This document shows, piece after piece, positions 2,533 to 40,866 of a stretch of DNA of 40,965 bases. The stretch is taken from UHGV virus genome UHGV-1351066; one strand, written 5' to 3'. How positions within the stretch are numbered: position 1 is the stretch's first letter; each line of letters opens with the position of its first letter. The notes under the pieces were generated by a model. The model was not told where the DNA came from. It was given only the letters and a program-made list of their open reading frames with translations, and searched no databases. The DNA is from a virus. The translations under genes and the position numbers were made by a program.

Positions 2533-3156
2533 ATGTCATCAATCCGCTTAACTACGAGAATGAAAGAGGAAATCGCTCGTAACGCTTTAATTAAGTCTGG
2601 GGTTTTCACTGAACTTGAAGAAGTAACAAAGTTAAAGAACCAGCTTGCACTTGACGCCAGAGTTATTGCGTTTGGCGGTAAAAAGAAAACTGAGGAAGTG
2701 GATCAGTTATCATCCAAGTTAGTAGCTATAAGTGAAGAACTTGAAAAACTGGGATGTTCATTTTACTCATACGATGTTCGTTCTACATCAATTTATCTGA
2801 CTGTATCTGGCAGAAGAGTTGGCTGGCATTCATACGGAAAAGACGGCAACGGTGAAGATATATTGCTCCCCACCCCAGAAAAAGATAAATGCATGTTTGA
2901 CGCAGAACACGAAATAACAAAAAGGTTTGATGAAATCTGCGCATTGCAACAAAAACTTGAAGCCAAGAAAAAGGATATCAAATCAAATGTATGGGCTGCT
3001 TTGAACTCAGTCACAACAGTTAAGCGACTTATTGAAGTTTGGCCTGAAAGCAAAGAGTTGCTACCAAAAGAAGCAGATAAAGCAAGTACAGCACTTCCTG
3101 CTTTACGGGTAGAAGATTTGAATAAGATGATTGGACTTCCTTCCGAGGCCGCATAG
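2533..3156 (+). CDS. hypothetical protein, early-left accessory gene
   Basis: 207 aa from ATG at 2533 (GAGGAA RBS); no recognisable motifs; followed by a terminator. Confidence 0.5.
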   Translation: MSSIRLTTRMKEEIARNALIKSGVFTELEEVTKLKNQLALDARVIAFGGKKKTEEVDQLSSKLVAISEELEKLGCSFYSYDVRSTSIYLTVSGRRVGWHSYGKDGNGEDILLPTPEKDKCMFDAEHEITKRFDEICALQQKLEAKKKDIKSNVWAALNSVTTVKRLIEVWPESKELLPKEADKASTALPALRVEDLNKMIGLPSEAA

Positions 3157-3171
3157 TCGGCCTTTATTTTT
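3146..3171 (+). terminator. rho-independent terminator
   Basis: AGGCCG-catagt-CGGCCT hairpin then TTTATTTT; overlaps the stop codon of the 207-aa gene. Confidence 0.55.
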
Positions 3172-3290
3172 AGCATAAACAACAGAATAAACACTGCACT
3201 GTGTATTCATTCCAACGAGTGAATACACGGAGCAATGTCGCTCGTAACTAAACAGGAGCCGACTTGTTCTGATTATTGGAAATCTTCTTT

Positions 3291-3316
3291 GCCCTCCAAT
3301 GTGAGGGCTTTTTTAT
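3291..3316 (+). terminator. rho-independent terminator
   Basis: GCCCTC-caatgt-GAGGGC followed by TTTTTT; preceded by a 9-bp perfect inverted repeat GTGTATTCA…TGAATACAC (~3200-3227). Confidence 0.6.
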
Positions 3317-3398
3317 ATGCATACCAATAACGCTTCACGAGAGGTGTTTATTCATGAGCGTAAACGCTGATTAATGAACGCAGTTGATAGGATATAAA

Positions 3399-3911
3399 AT
3401 GGCATTTATAAAGATTCTTGAATTAATTTCCCTAAGTGAGATTAATAATGTTGTCAAATATAACCCTATTTCTGGTGAGTTCACATGGCTAAAATCTTAT
3501 GGAGCAAGGAAGATAGGTGGAACTGCCGGAACAATAACAACAAGCGGCTACTTAAGGATTTTCATTAACGGAAGACACTATGCTGCACATAGACTTGCAT
3601 GGATTATCACTTTCGGTGTTGAGCCTGAAGGTATTATCGACCATATAAATGGCATTAAGACAGATAACAGAATTTGCAATCTGAGGCTTGCAACTTACTC
3701 ACAGAATTCAATGAATAGTAAAATAAACACCCTCAACAAATCAGGTTGCAAAGGAGTCACATGGAAGAAGGAAAGTAGAAAGTGGGCTGCCTATGGGAAA
3801 TTAAACGGAAAGAAAAAACATCTAGGGTACTTTAATGAATTAGAAGATGCCAAAAAAGCTTACTGCGACTTTGCCAGAAAGCATCACGGCGAATTCTACA
3901 GGAGCAAATAA
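3399..3911 (+). CDS. HNH homing endonuclease with AP2-like DNA-binding domain
   Basis: 'IDHINGIKTDNRICNLRLAT' HNH motif and 'GVTWKKESRKWAAYG…KHLGYF' AP2-like segment; start at ATG 3399. Confidence 0.8.
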   Translation: MAFIKILELISLSEINNVVKYNPISGEFTWLKSYGARKIGGTAGTITTSGYLRIFINGRHYAAHRLAWIITFGVEPEGIIDHINGIKTDNRICNLRLATYSQNSMNSKINTLNKSGCKGVTWKKESRKWAAYGKLNGKKKHLGYFNELEDAKKAYCDFARKHHGEFYRSK

Positions 3912-4029
3912 TGAATGAATATATTTTAGCGGGTAGCGGCGTCATGTCCGCTTTCTACCCGCACGAATCTGAATTATCACGCCGAGTTAAACAATTAATC
4001 AGTGCAGCAAAGAAACAACTGGAGGCGTT

Positions 4030-4182
4030 ATGCGCAATGAAATAGCCATCAATCACCAGATGCTTCGTGCAGCACAAAACAAAGCAGTAATAGCCAGATT
4101 TATTGGTGATTCAAAAATGTGGCTTGAAGCAAATAAAGCGATGAAATCAGCTATCAATCTTCCGTGGTATCGCAGGAAATGA
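4030..4182 (+). CDS. small hypothetical protein (50 aa)
   Basis: ORF with GGAGG upstream; below the ORF-track size cutoff; function unknown. Confidence 0.3.
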   Translation: MRNEIAINHQMLRAAQNKAVIARFIGDSKMWLEANKAMKSAINLPWYRRK

Positions 4183-28911: not shown

Positions 28912-30327
28912 TCAACCTACACCACAAGGAATTGAGTAACTGGAATAGTCGGGTTGCGCAGCCGACTCCGGGCAATGCATACACATCATCAGCGCATCAG
29001 CCAGGTTAGGAGATGGAATACCGAGCTTCTGCTTCATTTCGACCTTAGTCATAAGCTCCAGCTTCCCGTTGTTATTGAATTTGCGCTGAATCTGCGTCAG
29101 TTCTGCAAACAGCTTCTCCAGCATCTTCTCGCCTATCGCTTCTTTGTCGAAGCTCAGCATGTCGTCGGGGTCTGCATACTCACCGTGGACAACCGCCCGA
29201 TATGTCAGATACAACCTGTCAGCCAGCGCGTAATAGAATTGCGCTCGCTTATTGCGGAACACATCGCCAATAGTGCGAACGTTGTCGCCCTGCACGACTT
29301 CATCAGCCCATGCTCCAGCCTGATATGGTGCATCTTCATCAAATGGCGATTCGCTGCCCTTGAACATCGTGGCGGTGATTTTCTTACCGGAGAACGCTTC
29401 CGTTGTCTGTCTGCGTAGCCCTGCACCGACACCATCACCATCCCACAAGTAGTGGTCAGCACCGTCTTCAATCGCCAGCGAAGTAGCCCAGTCAGCCCCC
29501 TCGTTGATGTCCATCAGCAGACCTTCGGCAATGCGCTTAACTACCGAACCGTGGCGCGATGCATAACCTTTGGCATCCGGCCCTGTATCTGATGGGTCAT
29601 GTGCAGAAACAACAGCGCCTTTCGCTTTCCATCCGAGTTTCTTGTGCGCATCGGTTGCGGCTTCAAGCCATTCACGTTTGATGATTGCCATATCACTTGC
29701 GCTTACCGGCTCACCAAGCCAGATGTGACGATACAGTGTCGGATTTCTGCGTTTACACTCTTCCATCTCCAGACGGAGAACTTCAGGAAAATGCGGGTTG
29801 TCGGTGTAGTTCACCGTCAGCAGGCAAATATCATCGGGAGGATTTACAACGAATCGCTGATAGGTATCGTCGAGGATGTTCTTCGGGTTAAAGCTCACCC
29901 ATATTTCGGAAAACGGCTTGCGGATGGTTGGTATCAGGATGTCCCATGATTCCTTTGTTACCGCTTCCGCTTCTTCCACCCAGCAGATATCAATACCTTC
30001 GAGCGATTTAATCTTCGTCGGGTTGTTTTTTATGCCGTAGAACATGAATTCAGCATTCGTTCCGAGATGACGAATCATTGAACGCTGAATTTCAAACTCA
30101 GCCGAATACCCTTCCCGCTCTATGGTGTCTTCAAGCAACCGAATTACCGAATCGCTGATACTGTTTTGCAGCTCACGAGCGCAAAGTATGCGCACAGGCT
30201 GCCGACGCGCCGCTTCAACAAGCAGCCTAGCAATTGCCCATGACTTACCGCTACCTCGACCGCCTTTGGCGACTTTGTAGCGATGCGCCTCAATGAACGG
30301 TTCAAAGATAGGATTAATCGAGGTCAT
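28912..30327 (-). CDS. terminase large subunit
   Basis: Walker A 'KGGRGSGKS' at N-terminus; 471 aa; overlaps terS stop. Confidence 0.85.
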   Translation of the reverse strand: MTSINPIFEPFIEAHRYKVAKGGRGSGKSWAIARLLVEAARRQPVRILCARELQNSISDSVIRLLEDTIEREGYSAEFEIQRSMIRHLGTNAEFMFYGIKNNPTKIKSLEGIDICWVEEAEAVTKESWDILIPTIRKPFSEIWVSFNPKNILDDTYQRFVVNPPDDICLLTVNYTDNPHFPEVLRLEMEECKRRNPTLYRHIWLGEPVSASDMAIIKREWLEAATDAHKKLGWKAKGAVVSAHDPSDTGPDAKGYASRHGSVVKRIAEGLLMDINEGADWATSLAIEDGADHYLWDGDGVGAGLRRQTTEAFSGKKITATMFKGSESPFDEDAPYQAGAWADEVVQGDNVRTIGDVFRNKRAQFYYALADRLYLTYRAVVHGEYADPDDMLSFDKEAIGEKMLEKLFAELTQIQRKFNNNGKLELMTKVEMKQKLGIPSPNLADALMMCMHCPESAAQPDYSSYSIPCGVG

Positions 30328-33440: not shown

Positions 33441-33965
33441 GTCTTACCCCCAATAAGGGGATTTGCTCTATTTAATTAGGAATAAGGTCGATTACTGATA
33501 GAACAAATCCAGGCTACTGTGTTTAGTAATCAGATTTGTTCGTGACCGATATGCACGGGCAAAACGGCATGAGGTTGTTAGCGCAGCCTCTTGCCACCCG
33601 CTTTCACGAAGGTCATATGTAGAAGGCCGCAGCATAACTATCACTGATGAGTTCAGGATAACCAGTGGCTACGGCTCAGTTTGGGTTGTGGCGGTCGGTG
33701 CTGAACTCCGACTTAATGACGATAGGCGTGTACCGACGCCTCGTTTTACTTCCTCCGCTTTCACGGCTTCACCCTAGACCAGCTTTACGAAATCCTCGTA
33801 AACCTAACCGCGGCAGATATGACCGGCACGGTGTGCCATATCACGGACCGGCGGGTGTCTCGTTCACCTGATTAACGCATCAGCCTGCGTATTCACCACA
33901 ACGATAAGAGTACTGCGCGGCACCTTTCACCAATTCCGCGAGGTCTGCGGGTTCAATGCTCTTAC

Positions 33966-34060
33966 CTGTTGTGCAAACAAAAAAGCCACCGTTGCAACTT
34001 AAGAGTCACTAACGGCAGCTTACCTTCTAATTATGGCTAAATGGATAATTGCATGTCAAG
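33966..34060 (-). promoter_or_regulatory. late promoter pR' with short terminated leader (tR'-like)
   Basis: Minus strand: TTGACA (34054-34059), ~18-bp spacer, CATAAT (34030-34035), overlapping the Q 3' end; hairpin plus TTTTTTGTTT ~45 nt downstream. Confidence 0.5.
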
Positions 34061-34555
34061 GATTTTAACAGCAACATGCTTAACTTTCTCAACACGTTTA
34101 CGCATTTTGAAAGCATTTTGCATTGGCTGGTACAAAACAAATAACGACGCTTTCAGGATGTCGTCAATTTCGTTTCTACAGGTTGCCAGTGAAGGTTTTC
34201 TCCATCCCTCGCCACCACGTCCACACATCTTGCGTGGCTTTGCAGTCGCGTGATAGTAGGATGCAATTGCTCGCTTAGATGAACCATGAGCGTAGTAGCT
34301 GAGGAGGATGCCAAAGGCTTTCTTGTCAATGCACATGACGGAATCGACGACCTGAGAAATCAACATTCCATCATCATCATTGCACATTGGCCTTGTCATA
34401 ACTCTTCCCGGCTCTACGCTCTCCATGAACTTCGCTATTACGCTGCTCATGCGCTTTTCCAGACGACCTGAATAAACCCATGCGCCCCACAGTTCAAGCC
34501 AGCCATTCAGCCACTCGTGCTGCTCTTTGGTGAGGTTTAGTTCTCTTATGCTCAT
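34037..34555 (-). CDS. Q: late antiterminator Q (non-lambda Q family)
   Basis: 'WLELWGAWV…RPMCNDDDGMLISQVVDSVMC…' resembles Phage_antitermQ proteins; immediately upstream of pR'. Confidence 0.7.
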   Translation of the reverse strand: MSIRELNLTKEQHEWLNGWLELWGAWVYSGRLEKRMSSVIAKFMESVEPGRVMTRPMCNDDDGMLISQVVDSVMCIDKKAFGILLSYYAHGSSKRAIASYYHATAKPRKMCGRGGEGWRKPSLATCRNEIDDILKASLFVLYQPMQNAFKMRKRVEKVKHVAVKILDMQLSI

Positions 34556-36160: not shown

Positions 36161-36333
36161 TTCCTCGCACGATGTCTTAGCCACCGGATATCCCACAGGT
36201 GAGCCGTGTAATTGAAGGTTTTTACGTCAGATTCTTTTGGGATTGGCTTGGATTTATTTCTGGAGCGTTTCGGTGGAAGGTAATTGCAGTTTTCGCAGAT
36301 TATGTCGGTGAAACTTCGTCGCTGTCGTCTCAT
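36157..36333 (-). CDS. ninE: NinE
   Basis: '[58 protein letters not shown]' near-identical to lambda NinE. Confidence 0.8.
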
Positions 36334-36770
36334 GCCGCCCTGTCTCCCCATCGCGCTTTCCATTCGAGAGCCAGTCGCGCTTCGTCTGACCACTTAACGC
36401 CATGCTCTGTACCGAATGCCTGTATAAGCTCTAATAGCTCCGCAAATTCGCTTACACGCATCCTGCTGGTTGACTGGCCTATTACCACAAAGCCATTCCC
36501 GGCAAGGTTAGGAACAACGTCCTGCTGCTTTAAGGCTGCGGTGAACACACACTTCCAGCTTTCTGCATCCAGCCAGCGACCATGCCATTCAACCTGACGA
36601 GAGACGTCACCAAGGCAAGCCCAAAGCTTTCGGTTTTGGTCTAAGCTGCGGTTGCGTTCCTGAATGGTTACTACGATTGGTTTGGTTGGGTCTGGAAGGA
36701 TTTGCTGTACTGCGTGAATAGCGTTTTGCTGATGTGCCGGAGATCGAATTTCAAAGGTTAGTTTTTTCAT
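36330..36770 (-). CDS. ninB: NinB recombination protein
   Basis: Near-identical over full length to lambda NinB ('[31 protein letters not shown]…'). Confidence 0.85.
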
Positions 36771-36818
36771 GACTTCCCTCTCCCCCAAATAAAAAGGCCT
36801 GCGATTACCAGCAGGCCT

Positions 36819-37430
36819 TTATCTGTTTTTAACACGCTTTCGAGTCCTTTTAGATTTTTCCTTAAGATATTCCGCAAGTTTATCCTCATCATTATTAAAT
36901 TGAGATAAAAGCTCATGCTCGCAATTAAGTGCTTTACTCGCATAAGTTCCATATAGTTTCTTTCTTGCTAGTGCTGCTATGAATGCTGCATCTTCTTTGC
37001 TATCGAAATACCCTAACGATATTGTCTTATTTTTATAACCAACATAAGACTTCCACCTGCCAGTTGGCTTATACCAAGACACTCCAATTGCACCGGATGT
37101 GTTTAATCTATTCCCTACAATGTTTCTTGCATTCTGCTCTTCTGTTGCCAGTCTTAGATTTGAAATCCTATTGTCAAGTCTGTTCCCATTTACATGATCA
37201 ATAAACTTAGGAGGCCATTTTTTGTATACATAGAACCAAGCAAGTCTATGCGCATAATACAAAACATTATTTATGCTAATGCATATATAACCACCACTAA
37301 CACCTCCAGCAATACTACCTTTTACTCTTACTACTGAATTTGTTTTTAGCCATTTAAATATTCCTGTTTCTGAGTCATATGATAATGTTGACAGAAGCTC
37401 ATCGTGATCAATTAGTTTTTTTATTCGCAT
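36819..37430 (-). CDS. HNH homing endonuclease with AP2-like domain (second copy)
   Basis: 'IDHVNGNRLDNRISNLRLAT' HNH motif; 'GVSWYKPTGRWKSYVGYKNKTISLGYF' AP2-like; paralogous in architecture to the 3399-3911 gene. Confidence 0.8.
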   Translation of the reverse strand: MRIKKLIDHDELLSTLSYDSETGIFKWLKTNSVVRVKGSIAGGVSGGYICISINNVLYYAHRLAWFYVYKKWPPKFIDHVNGNRLDNRISNLRLATEEQNARNIVGNRLNTSGAIGVSWYKPTGRWKSYVGYKNKTISLGYFDSKEDAAFIAALARKKLYGTYASKALNCEHELLSQFNNDEDKLAEYLKEKSKRTRKRVKNR

Positions 37431-37511
37431 AAAGAATATACTTAATAATATATACAGTAAGAACCATTAGTAACGATAACCCTGCTATTAGCTCAGTGAT
37501 GTAGATGGTCA

Positions 37512-39977
37512 TCAGAATCCTCCTTTCTTCTTGGACTGCGGTTCCTCGCGTTCACGGCGGCGCATTTCAGCAGACTGTTGGTCTGTGTCATAAATAGCGC
37601 CATTTGCCTGAATGCAATACACCGTGCCGGTATTGCCATGACGATTGAGACGAAGGATTAGTTCGGTTTCACCAGGTGGAACACTGTCATCAAAAGCACC
37701 TTCACGATGGATCCCCACCCAATAATCGCAATCCTGTTCAATCTGCCCTGTATCTCGTGAGTCACTTGGTAGTGGGCGTTTATTGGTTCGGCTTTCCAGT
37801 GCGCGGTTAAGCTGCGTCAGAAGCACAACAACGCAATCAAGCTCTTTGGCAAGGTTCTTCAGTCCTTTGGTGATCATGCCGTAAGCAAGGTCGTTGCGAT
37901 CGGCCTTCTCAGCAGTCATTAGTGTCAGGTAATCGACCAGAATCATGCCAACGCATCCTTTTTCTCGTTTGATTCGACGGCTTTCGCTGACGATTTGAGC
38001 CAGAGATAATCCCGGCGTGTCGTCGATGTAAAGCAGGTCGATTTCACTCAAGCGATTGGCTGTTTCGATCGCCCTGTTGAAGTCACCATCGTAATCACCC
38101 TGATAGCCGTCATCGGCGTCATTTGTCGCCGGAAGGTAAAAAATATTTGGGTTAACACCTGACTTCTGTCCTACCAGTTTTTCCAGTATCTGGTCACCTG
38201 GCATTTCAAGGCTGAACATCAGAGCTGGCTTTTTCTCATGCACTGCGCAGTTGATTGCCATCTGGCTGTATAGCGTGGTGTTGTGGGTTAGAATGTATCC
38301 GTCAGTTGCATACAAATGTCTCTCGTGGGATACCATGATGCAAATGCACTCTTCACGTCCAATATACTCAACCGACGTGATAACAGGCGCACTTGTTTTG
38401 ATGCGTTTTGCAGTGAATTTTTGCTTCAGGCGTGGAGATTTTATGTGTGATAGAACCTCATCAGGCAACCTGATTGCGCAAATATGGGCATCCATACCTT
38501 TGCGCATTTCTCCCTTATAACTGAATTTCGGCTCCTGTTTGGTTGTCATACGACACACGCCACCAAGAGAATGCACCAGCCGCTTTACACCATCTGACAG
38601 GAACTTGCTTGCCGAGCTAAAGCGCAGGGCATTATTTCCTTCAACCCAACCATCGGTTTCAAGTAATCCGCATAGAACATCAATACGAGTTTGCTTATCA
38701 GCAGAAAAAATAATATCCGGGATAATTTTAATCTCTGACATCCGGCCGTAGATACCAAGCCGTTGCATAACCCGCGTAAGAGATAATTTGCGGCTAAACT
38801 TGTGAGATAGGGAGTAATCGCAGCCAGAAACATGCCTGACTTCAATATCGTCACCCACTTCAGATCTTACTCGCTCAATGATGTATGGTTCCGTCATGCT
38901 GATTCGTGGCGTACCTGCAAGATTTCCATCGCCAAGTAACGCACCTAACAGCCATGGGCTAATCCCTAAATCAACAGGCAATCCGAAGTCACCGCTAATA
39001 CCAGGAACATGAATGCGGCTTTGATAGCGAACGCATTCCATCATGTCCCGTAGGCGGCAGGTGTCTACAACATCAACGCCACCGGTAATACGGTTACTAT
39101 GAATTTCCCACAAATGATCATCCGCGCAATCAACGGTTCTTCCGTCAGAGAACGTAACTCGGTAAATATCTCGCTCCCCTTGAGGAAAAACTCCAGACAC
39201 GAATGATGGTTGTCCATCCACTGATGCTAGGGAATCTCCAACACATACGTCACGAAATGTTGTCCATGAACCATCAGCAAGCAAAATGCGTGAATTAAGC
39301 GGTTGCGCTTTCCCCATCTTAGGGCGAGCGCCAATGACAAACAGAGAGCCTTTCACCAGGCCTTTCGGTGACAGCATCCTGTCCAGCGATGGGATCCCTG
39401 TGCTCATTCCTCGTTGTTCTCCTGACGGGTCAAATCGCTTCTCAAGGTCGCTAACCCAGTCTTCCATGACCTCACCAAATGAGCGAAGGCCGCGACGCGA
39501 TCCGGTTTTTGCATGGTCTGTCAGTTGCGTGAAAATCGCCTGAATAGTTTCGTACTTCTGCGTTGCAGTCATTCCGTTGCGGGAATAGAGCAATTCCGTC
39601 GCTTCAGTCATGCGGTTGATGGCGTAGCGTTCCATTGCGGTTTCACGAACCTGCATTGCATAGGCAACGATGTTTGCTGCGCTTGGCGTGTTCTTTGCGA
39701 TCTCAGCGATATAAGCAAAACCGCCAACAGACGCCGTTAACGATTTACGCTCCAGTTCATCGAAAAGCGTCAGGCCATCTACTGGCTTTTGCTCCCGGTG
39801 CATTCTGGTTATTTCTTCGAAAAGGATTTTGTGTGGCCGGCTGTAAAATGAGTCAGGCTTCAGCATCGCCAGAACTTTCTGGACGCGCTCACTGCTGTCA
39901 TCATCCAGAAGCAATCCACCAATCACCGCCTGCTCTGCCTCGATGCTATGGGGCGGCGCATAAAAATTATCGGTCAT
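37512..39977 (-). CDS. dnaB: DnaB-family replicative helicase containing an intein
   Basis: N-terminal region and RecA-like core collinear with E. coli DnaB ('SVGGFAYIAEIAKNTPSAANIVAYA', 'ALMFSLEMP'); Walker A 'GARPKMGK' is split from 'TTLYSQMAIN'; ATG at 39977 has a GAGGGTG RBS. Confidence 0.85.
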   Translation of the reverse strand: MTDNFYAPPHSIEAEQAVIGGLLLDDDSSERVQKVLAMLKPDSFYSRPHKILFEEITRMHREQKPVDGLTLFDELERKSLTASVGGFAYIAEIAKNTPSAANIVAYAMQVRETAMERYAINRMTEATELLYSRNGMTATQKYETIQAIFTQLTDHAKTGSRRGLRSFGEVMEDWVSDLEKRFDPSGEQRGMSTGIPSLDRMLSPKGLVKGSLFVIGARPKMGKAQPLNSRILLADGSWTTFRDVCVGDSLASVDGQPSFVSGVFPQGERDIYRVTFSDGRTVDCADDHLWEIHSNRITGGVDVVDTCRLRDMMECVRYQSRIHVPGISGDFGLPVDLGISPWLLGALLGDGNLAGTPRISMTEPYIIERVRSEVGDDIEVRHVSGCDYSLSHKFSRKLSLTRVMQRLGIYGRMSEIKIIPDIIFSADKQTRIDVLCGLLETDGWVEGNNALRFSSASKFLSDGVKRLVHSLGGVCRMTTKQEPKFSYKGEMRKGMDAHICAIRLPDEVLSHIKSPRLKQKFTAKRIKTSAPVITSVEYIGREECICIMVSHERHLYATDGYILTHNTTLYSQMAINCAVHEKKPALMFSLEMPGDQILEKLVGQKSGVNPNIFYLPATNDADDGYQGDYDGDFNRAIETANRLSEIDLLYIDDTPGLSLAQIVSESRRIKREKGCVGMILVDYLTLMTAEKADRNDLAYGMITKGLKNLAKELDCVVVLLTQLNRALESRTNKRPLPSDSRDTGQIEQDCDYWVGIHREGAFDDSVPPGETELILRLNRHGNTGTVYCIQANGAIYDTDQQSAEMRRREREEPQSKKKGGF
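38280..39308 (-). other. intein (343 aa) with LAGLIDADG homing-endonuclease domain inside the helicase P-loop
   Basis: Starts 'AQPLNSRILLADGS' (block A spacing as in Sce VMA 'CFAKGTNVLMADGS'), ends '…GYILTHN' followed by extein Thr; two LAGLIDADG-like motifs ('LLGALLGDGNLAG', 'LCGLLETDGWVEG'). Confidence 0.75.
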
Positions 39978-40866
39978 CGTGTTCACCCTCACGAACTTTC
40001 AGGTAGGTATTATCGTTAAGCAGGAAATCAAATCCCTTTTTGTGCCAGACGGTTCCGCGTTGATGGTTTGGGCGCTCTTCGAACATCCATCGGCAATTTT
40101 CGCCAACGTAGCTCAAATAATTTCTCCAGTCCTGCATCGTGAACCCATGCCCGTCAAGCTGGCGGGTTATCACTCCGGCTTTGCGCCAGAACGTTCGGAT
40201 CTGGTTTTTACGCTTGTCATTCAGTGCGCGGATTCTTGGAGCTTCAGGAAGGATTTCGTGGTAAGCATCGACAACATCCTGACAGCTGACGGAAGGTTTT
40301 TTCTTGTCAGACTTTTTGTCTGCTGTGGCACTCTCTAATACGTCAGTATTAGAGATAATATTATTATATTCTTTATCTGTGGTAATTTGCTGGTAATCTG
40401 CTGGTACAGCATTGCTTACAGGCATTGGTATTGCTGGCTTTGAGGTGGTAATTTGCTGGTAATCTGCTGGTACAAAATTTGACTGATAATCGTCATATTT
40501 CTCTACCGAGAAAACTGAGAATTTACCGTGTGAAACCCAGTCAATCATGCCGAGTTTTTTGAACTTTCTAAGCAGGTACTGAACGCGATCTGGTTTGAGT
40601 CCTGTTTCAAACGCCAGAGAGTTTCTACCGCCAAGTAGCTTCCCTCTGCCTACCAGAATTTCTCCTGCGTCAGTCATTACATACTCAGGCGTATGCTTTG
40701 CTTTGAGGATTAAGTGAACCCACAGATGCGCTGCTTCTGCATCCTTGTAAAACGGCACATCCATAATTTTACGGTGCAGCAAGGCATACCCCTTACCGCT
40801 GCTTTGATGCGGTTGTTGTAGCCTTCTGGCCTCTCTGGCTTCGGCTAGATTAGATATGTTACTCAT
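39967..40866 (-). CDS. replication initiator (lambda O / P22 gp18 analogue)
   Basis: Directly upstream of the helicase; internal tandem peptide repeat '[10 protein letters not shown]' x2 encoded by iteron-like DNA repeats; start overlaps an upstream stop context. Confidence 0.6.
40336..40474. repeat. candidate origin: AT-rich tract plus 28-bp direct repeats (GCTGGTA iterons) inside the initiator gene
   Basis: GGTAATTTGCTGGTAATCTGCTGGTACA at 40381-40408 and 40447-40474; AT-rich 40336-40380. Confidence 0.5.

Follow-up and report, generated by a model that had tools for sequence, protein, structure and literature searches.

The 40,965-bp DNA of virus genome UHGV-1351066 (the window, i.e., the whole stretch analyzed) is, judging from its sequence, that of a P22-like Escherichia coli phage with lambdoid early regions. 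It contains two free-standing genes of the HNH-AP2 family, referred to here as HNH-1 and HNH-2, which are likely to encode homing endonucleases whose activity would drive the spread of the cassettes that carry them, and a replicative helicase gene interrupted by an intein with its own endonuclease domain. A first-pass annotation of the same DNA had listed these three as selfish nuclease elements. Both its observation and its interpretation were essentially right, and the elements are of known selfish-DNA kinds and mostly ordinary. Comparisons were made with 5,426 complete E. coli genomes and with a collection of 50,697 phage records.

Two free-standing HNH-AP2 genes in the early operons

The open reading frames (ORFs) at 3399-3911 (plus strand) and 36819-37430 (minus strand), picked out as HNH-AP2 genes in the first-pass annotation, both match HNH_3 (PF13392; Pfam E-values of 1.7e-15 for HNH-1 and 8.2e-16 for HNH-2, above the cut-off) and AP2 (PF00847; E of ~1e-6 and 29 bits, under the 33.3-bit cut-off). 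Over 166 aa, HNH-1 and HNH-2 have 40% identity (E of 1e-36), and they share the IDH...NLRLAT motif noticed earlier, in the forms IIDHINGIKTDNRICNLRLAT and FIDHVNGNRLDNRISNLRLAT. In a 30-sequence family alignment that included both proteins, D81, H82, N84, G85, D89, R91, N94, L95, R96, N103 and N106 (HNH-1 numbering) are invariant, and no decay was found at D81, H82, N94 and N103, the residues at which a pseudogene might have been recognized. The invariant columns align to the D-H...N...N active-site region of I-HmuI (D74-H75...N96), the matches to I-HmuI in a sequence search of solved structures being marginal (E of 0.016 and 0.35). Both proteins belong to PHROG 99, "HNH endonuclease" (phrog_99; E of 1e-68 and 1e-72), and a profile built from the HNH-AP2 family matched only these two among the window ORFs. 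Both have the features of this family, i.e., an HNH_3 domain with Asp-His, a structural Asn and a metal-binding Asn, a C-terminal AP2 domain, and a free-standing gene found sporadically at a defined site in otherwise homologous genomes. Each is a stand-alone ORF between protein genes, borne by neither an intron nor an intein. Homologues of HNH-AP2 proteins are found in 2,450 of the 50,697 phage records (~5%), frequently several per genome; such genes are common in phages, and HNH-1 and HNH-2 themselves are already annotated as "HNH endonuclease". HNH-AP2 proteins are a recognized homing-endonuclease family, and their genes mark recombination boundaries in phages (PMC10448857).

HNH-1 is located in the early-left (pL) operon at the start of cIII, where the following features are found:

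3399-3911, plus strand: HNH-1 ORF, 170 aa, with an I-HmuI-like N-terminal sheet, HNH_3 (D81-H82...N94...N103) and AP2 (residues ~116-166)
3350-3928, plus strand: HNH-1 cassette, 579 bp, delimited by blastn boundaries, junction sequences and GC content
3145-3174 (hairpin 3145-3164), plus strand: first of two terminator-like hairpins before HNH-1, close behind the Nmad5 gene, from a consensus scan
3291-3318 (hairpin 3291-3308), plus strand: second of these hairpins, GCCCTCCAATGTGAGGGC with a T-run after it, from a consensus scan
3900-3913, plus strand: translational-coupling junction, with a Shine-Dalgarno AGGAG inside the 3' end of HNH-1
3911-4045, plus strand: cIII, its first six codons recoded and the remainder 98% identical to empty-site alleles
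3935-3951, plus strand: the 17-nt AGCGGCGTCATGTCCGC, cIII codons 9-14, just 3' of the cassette

Comparison of the insertion sites with relatives lacking the genes, suggested in the first-pass annotation, gave exact boundaries against HK97, HK106, mEp234 and lambda. At cIII, the match to HK97 ends at 3349 and restarts at 3929, with 579 bp in place of 49 bp. The displaced 49 bp comprise the cIII ribosome-binding site and first six codons of the HK97 empty-site allele, and because the cassette replaces this leader and these codons, cIII begins with MNEYIL, compared to MMHFQL in HK97. The GC content of the cassette is 36.4%, compared to 46.0% for the window. The HNH-1 stop codon TAA overlaps the cIII ATG (TAATG, 3909-3913), and this junction is kept in HNH-1 homologues of 64-67% identity. 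The terminators said earlier to precede HNH-1 correspond to the two hairpins listed above, and HK97 has an annotated putative terminator at the place homologous to the second. No promoter-like site was found upstream of HNH-1 in a consensus scan. Given that HNH-1 follows two terminator-like hairpins and has no such site, its expression should depend on N antitermination.

The HNH-1 protein is identical to RefSeq WP_000874115.1 ("HNH endonuclease"). The cassette is found in 10 of the 5,426 complete E. coli genomes, and the cIII leader/start site is empty in at least 349. In all three HNH-1-bearing genomes inspected, the cassette lies directly before cIII-kil and the upstream and recombination modules vary; IS1 truncates HNH-1 in one of the three. 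A close HNH-1 copy is absent from the 50,697 phage records, in which the best protein match is 53.6% and the best DNA match to the cassette, which has no close relative there, is 74% over 276 nt (Hafnia phage Meifeng). Among the IMG/VR contigs, all four that have a MNEYIL-type cIII start also have HNH-1 upstream. Within the HK97-type lineage, members with and without HNH-1 have flanks of 98% identity.

Homologues of HNH-1 (64-67%) from E. coli CP142552 and from Atlantibacter-type contigs are at the same site and have the same overlap junction. Across three HNH-cIII lineages the identity is 64-67% for HNH, 67-71% for cIII and 61-63% for kil, and the ratio of nonsynonymous to synonymous substitution rates (dN/dS) in the HNH-1 lineage is ~0.08-0.10, values that are approximate because dS was saturated in these comparisons and one pair was uncomputable. 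The homologues at the same junction, the similar divergence of cIII and kil and the dN/dS of ~0.1 indicate that the HNH-cIII association is old and conserved. As HNH-1 has diverged together with cIII-kil and provides cIII with its ribosome-binding site, it may be not purely selfish. The 17-nt AGCGGCGTCATGTCCGC is invariant in DNA across the three lineages, whose cIII proteins are only ~67-71% identical, and could be a candidate endonuclease/AP2 recognition or anchoring sequence or a regulatory element of the cIII mRNA. Further, different HNH genes were observed in the pL operon of lambdoid prophages with HNH-1 or its homologues (L004 6128-6595; L006 3393-3809; L025 1129-1599). Their positions are after RecT, before Erf or upstream of HNH-1, and it seems that HNH genes gather in early-left operons.

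HNH-2 is located between ninB and the helicase gene (37512-39977), as the first-pass annotation had placed it, and interrupts the linker that encodes NinA:

36819-37430, minus strand: HNH-2 ORF, 203 aa, with the architecture of HNH-1 (D77-H78) and a basic C-terminal tail
36823-37480, minus strand: HNH-2 cassette, ~658 bp, inserted in the ninA linker relative to HK106, mEp234 and lambda
36330-36770, minus strand: ninB, the downstream neighbor of the cassette (Pfam NinB, E of 7e-55; start MKKLTFEI)
36793-36820, minus strand: AAAGGCCTGCTGGTAATCGCAGGCCTTT, a terminator-like hairpin with a T-run after it; this displaced 3' part of ninA abuts the HNH-2 stop codon
37408-37512, minus strand: hybrid ninA' ORF (MTIYITELIAGLSLLMVLTVYIIKYILYANKKTN), 34 aa, which overlaps the helicase stop codon (TGATG) and the HNH-2 start

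The empty-site linker is 80 nt long, encodes a 26-aa NinA peptide, contains a hairpin before ninB and follows ren in lambda and an HK022-type helicase in HK106. The sequence of the hairpin at 36793-36820 is also found between ren and ninB in lambda. The HNH-2 cassette has an imperfect short repeat, CCT(G/T)(T/C)TAT, at both ends and a GC content of 33.7% (window, 46.0%). The hybrid ninA' takes its first ~9 codons from ninA and a new hydrophobic tail from the cassette, and equals HK022_56. HNH-2 itself is 100% identical to HK022_57, and its copy in PA28 is annotated as "homing endonuclease" (RefSeq, "HNH endonuclease").

The block at 36766-37513 is 99-100% identical in HK022, PA28 (after ren) and WGPS4 (after a different helicase), so that three unrelated replication modules are found before it, i.e., the HK022-type helicase, lambda-type O/P/ren and a different "DnaB analogue". 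Compared to HK022, there are 0 single-nucleotide polymorphisms (SNPs) over 36778-37535 (758 bp) and 22 in the adjacent 750 bp of the helicase gene. Among the E. coli genomes, 126 have HNH-2, at 144 places in all and up to 3 in one genome, and at least 1,684 have an intact empty ninA linker. The HNH-2 protein cluster at 90% identity has 521 members, and the gene for the next relative (62%) likewise lies directly after a replication gene and before nin genes. In the Shiga toxin (Stx) 2 phage 1717 (L011 2216-2217), ISEc8 starts exactly at the upstream boundary of the HNH-2 cassette, inside ninA, and the homology of this phage to the window also ends at 37481, which may be a coincidence or point to a fragile or hot site.

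A third site was identified from a sibling genome (L018), whose identity to the window is 99.96-99.99% except in the Q-holin region. Between Q and holin, L018 has a third HNH_3-AP2 gene (L018 15935-16447) for a protein of 170 aa that is 45% identical to HNH-1, and it carries four such elements in total. The window has the empty site:

34024-34030 (~34028), minus strand: empty site for the third HNH-AP2 gene, just 3' of Q, from comparison of the window with L018

In the 2.2-kb stretch compared between the window and L018, 53 of the 54 SNPs are at 33634-34062, within ~400 bp of the insertion. Four other contigs without the third gene are ~99.8-99.99% identical to the window across the Q-holin region. 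This clustering of SNPs is the pattern that co-conversion during homing would leave.

The helicase intein and the rarity of the three elements

The LAGLIDADG domain reported earlier in a helicase intein was found as two motifs within an in-frame insertion of 343 aa:

37512-39977, minus strand: DnaB-type replicative helicase precursor, 821 aa from the ATG, with Pfam DnaB and a DnaB_C match split in two
38280-39308, minus strand: intein, 343 aa (1,029 bp), from alignment to the intein-less HK022 P protein and from Hint and LAGLIDADG signals
38919-38951, minus strand: LAGLIDADG motif 1, LLGALLGDGNL
38643-38675, minus strand: LAGLIDADG motif 2, LCGLLETDGWV

The intein lies exactly in frame between the K and T of the Walker-A loop (GARPKMGK|T), and the alignment of the exteins to HK022 P is gapless, with few substitutions. 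Class-3 inteins are defined by a Trp at position 12 of block B, a Cys at position 4 of block F and a Thr at position 5 of block G (PMC3196547). The window intein starts with Ala1 (AQPLNS...), with no Ser, Thr or Cys at position 1 as in class 3, and has this Trp-Cys-Thr signature in H65-L-W67 (block B), C323 in CICIMV (block F) and the C-terminal T341-H-N, the block positions having been set by alignment rather than with a curated intein profile. C323 aligns with the block-F Cys column of Mycobacterium smegmatis DnaBi1 (6bs8). The C-terminal His-Asn, followed by a +1 Thr and an intact extein, also fits a class-3 insertion. The LAGLIDADG_3 match in Pfam scores 22.5 bits, exactly the cut-off, over a stretch beside motif 1 that includes motif 2; both motifs keep the catalytic Asp, and the region around motif 2 aligns to residues 298-365 of PI-SceI. 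By these features the insertion is a class-3-type intein with a LAGLIDADG endonuclease domain, and it is predicted to splice, by way of the block-F branched intermediate typical of class 3.

The intein DNA is present in none of the 50,697 phage records and in 18 of the 5,426 E. coli genomes, at an identity of at least 99.6%. Homologues of the intein protein are few, the best being 50% identical, and are in the P-loops of DnaB and other helicases. In the 18 E. coli matches, no annotated feature covers the intein. In the one genome inspected for its helicase annotation, E. coli strain 631 (RefSeq/PGAP; L012 2733-5198), the gene is given as two pseudogene fragments, "missing N-terminus" and "missing C-terminus", because the intein was not recognized; the intein-bearing helicase may well be functional and, judging from this one genome, may be mis-annotated systematically. 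No report of a lambdoid coliphage intein turned up in our literature search, and to our knowledge E. coli is usually treated as intein-free. Two bases near the insertion point differ from intein-less relatives, i.e., 38277, the wobble base of the +1 Thr codon (different from HK022 and HK106), and 39312, at the wobble position of the codon for the Gly two residues ahead of the intein (different from HK022, not from HK106). These differences may be marks of target-site immunity or of co-conversion.

The first-pass annotation had called the three elements unusual for P22-like phages. Their rarity was borne out: none of the 50,697 phage records has HNH-1 or the intein, and among the 5,426 E. coli genomes HNH-1 is found in 10 and the intein in 18. 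The reference to P22-like phages was not borne out, as the elements are in the lambdoid early region, which is freely exchanged among lambdoid phages. The E. coli genomes listed for HNH-1 and those listed for the intein do not overlap, and the trio recurs on at least four independent contigs with different immunity regions. The combination is rare, not surprising.

Probable homing and its alternatives

Homing is inferred here from family membership and comparative signatures, and the predictions made for cleavage, as a nick or a double-strand break, for recognition sequences and for splicing draw on what is known of HNH enzymes of the I-HmuI type, of class-3 inteins and of the free-standing homing endonucleases of phages. 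Each HNH-AP2 protein consists of an I-HmuI-like N-terminal beta-sheet, a beta-beta-alpha-metal (HNH_3) active site, in which the His would be the general base and Asp/Asn the metal ligands, and a C-terminal AP2 domain, which would bind DNA in a sequence-specific way. Each gene would be transcribed passively with its own early operon, HNH-2 together with O and the helicase gene and upstream of the hairpin before ninB, so that both proteins would be made during phage DNA replication, with the phage RecT recombinase present. The enzyme would then nick or cut at or near the empty site on a related lambdoid genome in the same cell, whether that of a phage infecting at the same time or of a prophage, either resident or co-induced. 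The target of HNH-1 would be the HK97-type cIII leader and start codon, and that of HNH-2 the 80-nt ninA linker, which lambda, HK106 and mEp234 have in common, with different replication modules before it. Recombinational repair from the occupied genome would copy the cassette with variable lengths of flank, and the carrier genome would escape cutting, its own site being split or recoded by the cassette. Damage would be limited, as HNH-1 would give cIII a new ribosome-binding site and start and HNH-2 would give NinA a new C-terminus. The intein would have to splice from the protein for helicase function and would home at the DNA level likewise. Empty sites are far commoner than occupied ones at both HNH loci.

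Several points weigh against homing. The assignment of the AP2 fold rests on predicted structure, with a Pfam score below the gathering threshold, and the recognition sites proposed for HNH-1 and HNH-2 are guesses. We know of no cleavage, nicking or homing assay for close relatives of either protein. Ordinary homologous recombination at conserved lambdoid linkers could move the cassettes without nuclease activity, and given that the SNP tract next to the third insertion site includes a non-homologous replaced segment (33711-33877), a plain module swap could have produced it. In E. coli genomes, HNH-2 is split or truncated in some of its copies. The similar divergence of HNH-1, cIII and kil appears to fit long vertical co-inheritance at least as well as repeated invasion, and HNH-1 looks partly entrenched. 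With these points taken into account, homing endonucleases that drive the spread of their cassettes remain the likely reading of HNH-1 and HNH-2. It is possible but doubtful that a broader proposal holds as well, in which lambdoid coliphages host actively homing, site-specific HNH-AP2 lineages (at the cIII start, the ninA linker and the Q-holin gap) and a splicing-competent class-3 LAGLIDADG intein, the nucleases create some of the classic mosaic boundaries, HNH-1 is a translational driver of cIII, and replication is conditional on intein splicing.

The nucleases could instead be entrenched or domesticated, i.e., former homing endonucleases kept because they benefit the phage, either by cutting rival lambdoid genomes (marker exclusion or superinfection competition) or because cIII translation now needs the ribosome-binding site and coupling in the 3' end of HNH-1. 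This is in line with the co-divergence of HNH-1, cIII and kil as a block that keeps the TAATG junction and the internal AGGAG, with the strong purifying selection (dN/dS of ~0.1), with the recoded cIII 5' end, which was never found without HNH-1 (four of four IMG/VR contigs and the 10 E. coli genomes with the cassette), and with the recurrence of the trio on several contigs with different immunity regions. However, most lambdoid phages with 98%-identical cIII-kil or ninA-ninB are without the HNH genes, which are thus dispensable, and the cutting mechanism would be the same as in homing, with only the beneficiary different; we regard domestication as unlikely. Still less probable is that the cassettes are passive mosaic modules, spread like morons through ordinary or short-homology recombination, with the nuclease irrelevant or lost. 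The insertion points are in junctions conserved across many lambdoid phages, unrelated small genes fill neighboring slots (e.g., the phrog_14587 gene in Kapi1 and HK446, at the same terminator), and some HNH-2 copies are degraded, all of which is in line with passive spread. Against it are the retention of all catalytic residues under purifying selection, the three sites in one phage lineage, each with a different member of the same nuclease family, and an HNH-2 cassette far more uniform than its flanks.

It is highly improbable that the two proteins are AP2-type DNA-binding regulators resembling the CasPR anti-CRISPR proteins, or HNH proteins associated with packaging like HK97 gp74. HNH proteins aid cos cleavage in some HK97-like phages, but the virion module of the window is P22-like, and P22-like phages package by a headful mechanism. 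The terminase gene (28912-30327) lies 6.5-25 kb away from HNH-1 and HNH-2, which belong to the pL and pR early operons, and given that neither HNH gene adjoins the terminase or portal gene of a cos phage, a terminase-helper role was rejected. AP2 domains of phage proteins can silence transcription, but CasPR proteins pair AP2 with CapR domains and not with an intact HNH (bioRxiv 10.64898/2026.02.23.707548); a CasPR-like repressor role was rejected, as an intact HNH rather than CapR is beside AP2 here. The full conservation of the HNH active site argues against both roles. PADLOC returned only its generic "homing endonuclease" model, and this weak and generic match gives no link to a defence system.

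If HNH-1 and HNH-2 are homing endonucleases, they offer a tractable homing system in temperate phages, with empty sites in lambda, HK97 and HK106 and occupied ones in HK022 and the window phage, and such occupied/empty pairs could test whether homing endonucleases help create lambdoid mosaic boundaries. Through the coupling of HNH-1 to cIII, expression of a lysis-lysogeny regulator is linked to a selfish element. The most useful by-products of this analysis are the exact empty/occupied site pairs in classical, genetically tractable phages and the unrecognized intein.

Genome context and comparison with known systems

The virion half of the window (8-33 kb) is P22-like, with CUS-3, E212 and Kapi1 as the nearest records (~95-96% identity). 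In the phage record collection searched, no GenBank phage record covers the whole window. A Sequence Read Archive assembly contig (Logan SRR5597382_43; L017, 40,995 bp) is 100% identical to the window over the 19.2 kb fetched; it exceeds the window by 30 bp, as might be expected if a circular genome had been assembled with a k-mer overlap. The remaining features are as follows:

Plus-strand early region: cI (731-1465), N (1735-2127), the Nmad5 gene (2533-3156), HNH-1, cIII, kil, RecT and Gp157
Minus-strand early region: O (39967-40866), the DnaB-type helicase gene, HNH-2, ninB, NinF, YbcO, RusA, NinH and Q
2533-3156, plus strand: Nmad5 gene ("nucleotide modification associated domain 5"; Pfam E of 7e-72)
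28912-30327: terminase, from a profile search of the window and Pfam Terminase_3 on a 99.985%-identical contig

The Nmad5 gene lies between N and HNH-1 in the pL operon and is common to phage Kapi1. An 88-aa ORF (2130-2396) directly after N has weak zinc-finger matches, both under the Pfam cut-offs. Pfam found no additional homing-type gene among the ORFs of the early and nin regions; RusA and YbcO, both encoded there, are ordinary lambdoid nucleases.

The closest known system is the HNH-AP2 family, which includes the "IPA-HNH" genes of ICP1 phages (Magnani, Sjolander & Hake 2004, via PMC10448857; PHROG 99). As in that family, HNH-1 and HNH-2 are small free-standing ORFs with N-terminal HNH_3 and C-terminal AP2 domains, sporadic between close relatives and at genetic-exchange boundaries. 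Unlike its members in lytic phages, cyanobacteria and protists, they are in the early operons of a temperate lambdoid coliphage, as site-specific lineages (cIII start and ninA linker) each of which rebuilds the small gene that it interrupts. A putative HNH homing endonuclease has been described in the early-left operon of another P22-like phage, epsilon34 (PMC2629481). Gene 57 of HK022 and the copies in Stx phages (PA28, 1717, WGPS4 and SH2026Stx1) are the same gene as HNH-2, with 99-100% DNA identity over a block of ~745 bp. These copies differ from that of the window in having ren or a different helicase upstream and extra small genes before ninB, and none is in a P22-like phage; HK022 has neither the intein nor HNH-1.

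I-HmuI of Bacillus phage SPO1 (PDB 1U3E) has the same D-H...N...N pattern and an N-terminal sheet with HNH. HNH-1 and HNH-2 share this catalytic core and were rejected as members of the I-HmuI-type intron nickase subgroup, being free-standing and having a C-terminal AP2 rather than a helix-turn-helix. I-HmuI itself is encoded by a group I intron, ends in a helix-turn-helix and is a strand-specific nickase. The class-3 P-loop DnaB inteins (M. smegmatis DnaBi1, PDB 6BS8, and that of mycobacteriophage Bethlehem) resemble the window intein in their Walker-A site, the lack of an N-terminal nucleophile, Trp B12, Cys F4, Thr G5 and the C-terminal His-Asn. The window intein is different in its host gene, which is from an E. 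coli lambdoid phage, in its +1 Thr and in keeping a full LAGLIDADG domain, whereas the solved relatives are mini-inteins.

The seg and mob genes of T4 belong mostly to the GIY-YIG and other HNH families, and are those of a lytic phage with experimentally characterized enzymes, whereas the enzymes of the window are known from sequence alone. The T4 genes and those of the window are alike in being intergenic or gene-overlapping and in their presence or absence among relatives, and would be alike in passive expression from host operons and in the co-conversion of flanking markers. T4 has ~15 homing endonucleases in 169 kb, a density similar to that of the 3 elements in 41 kb here.

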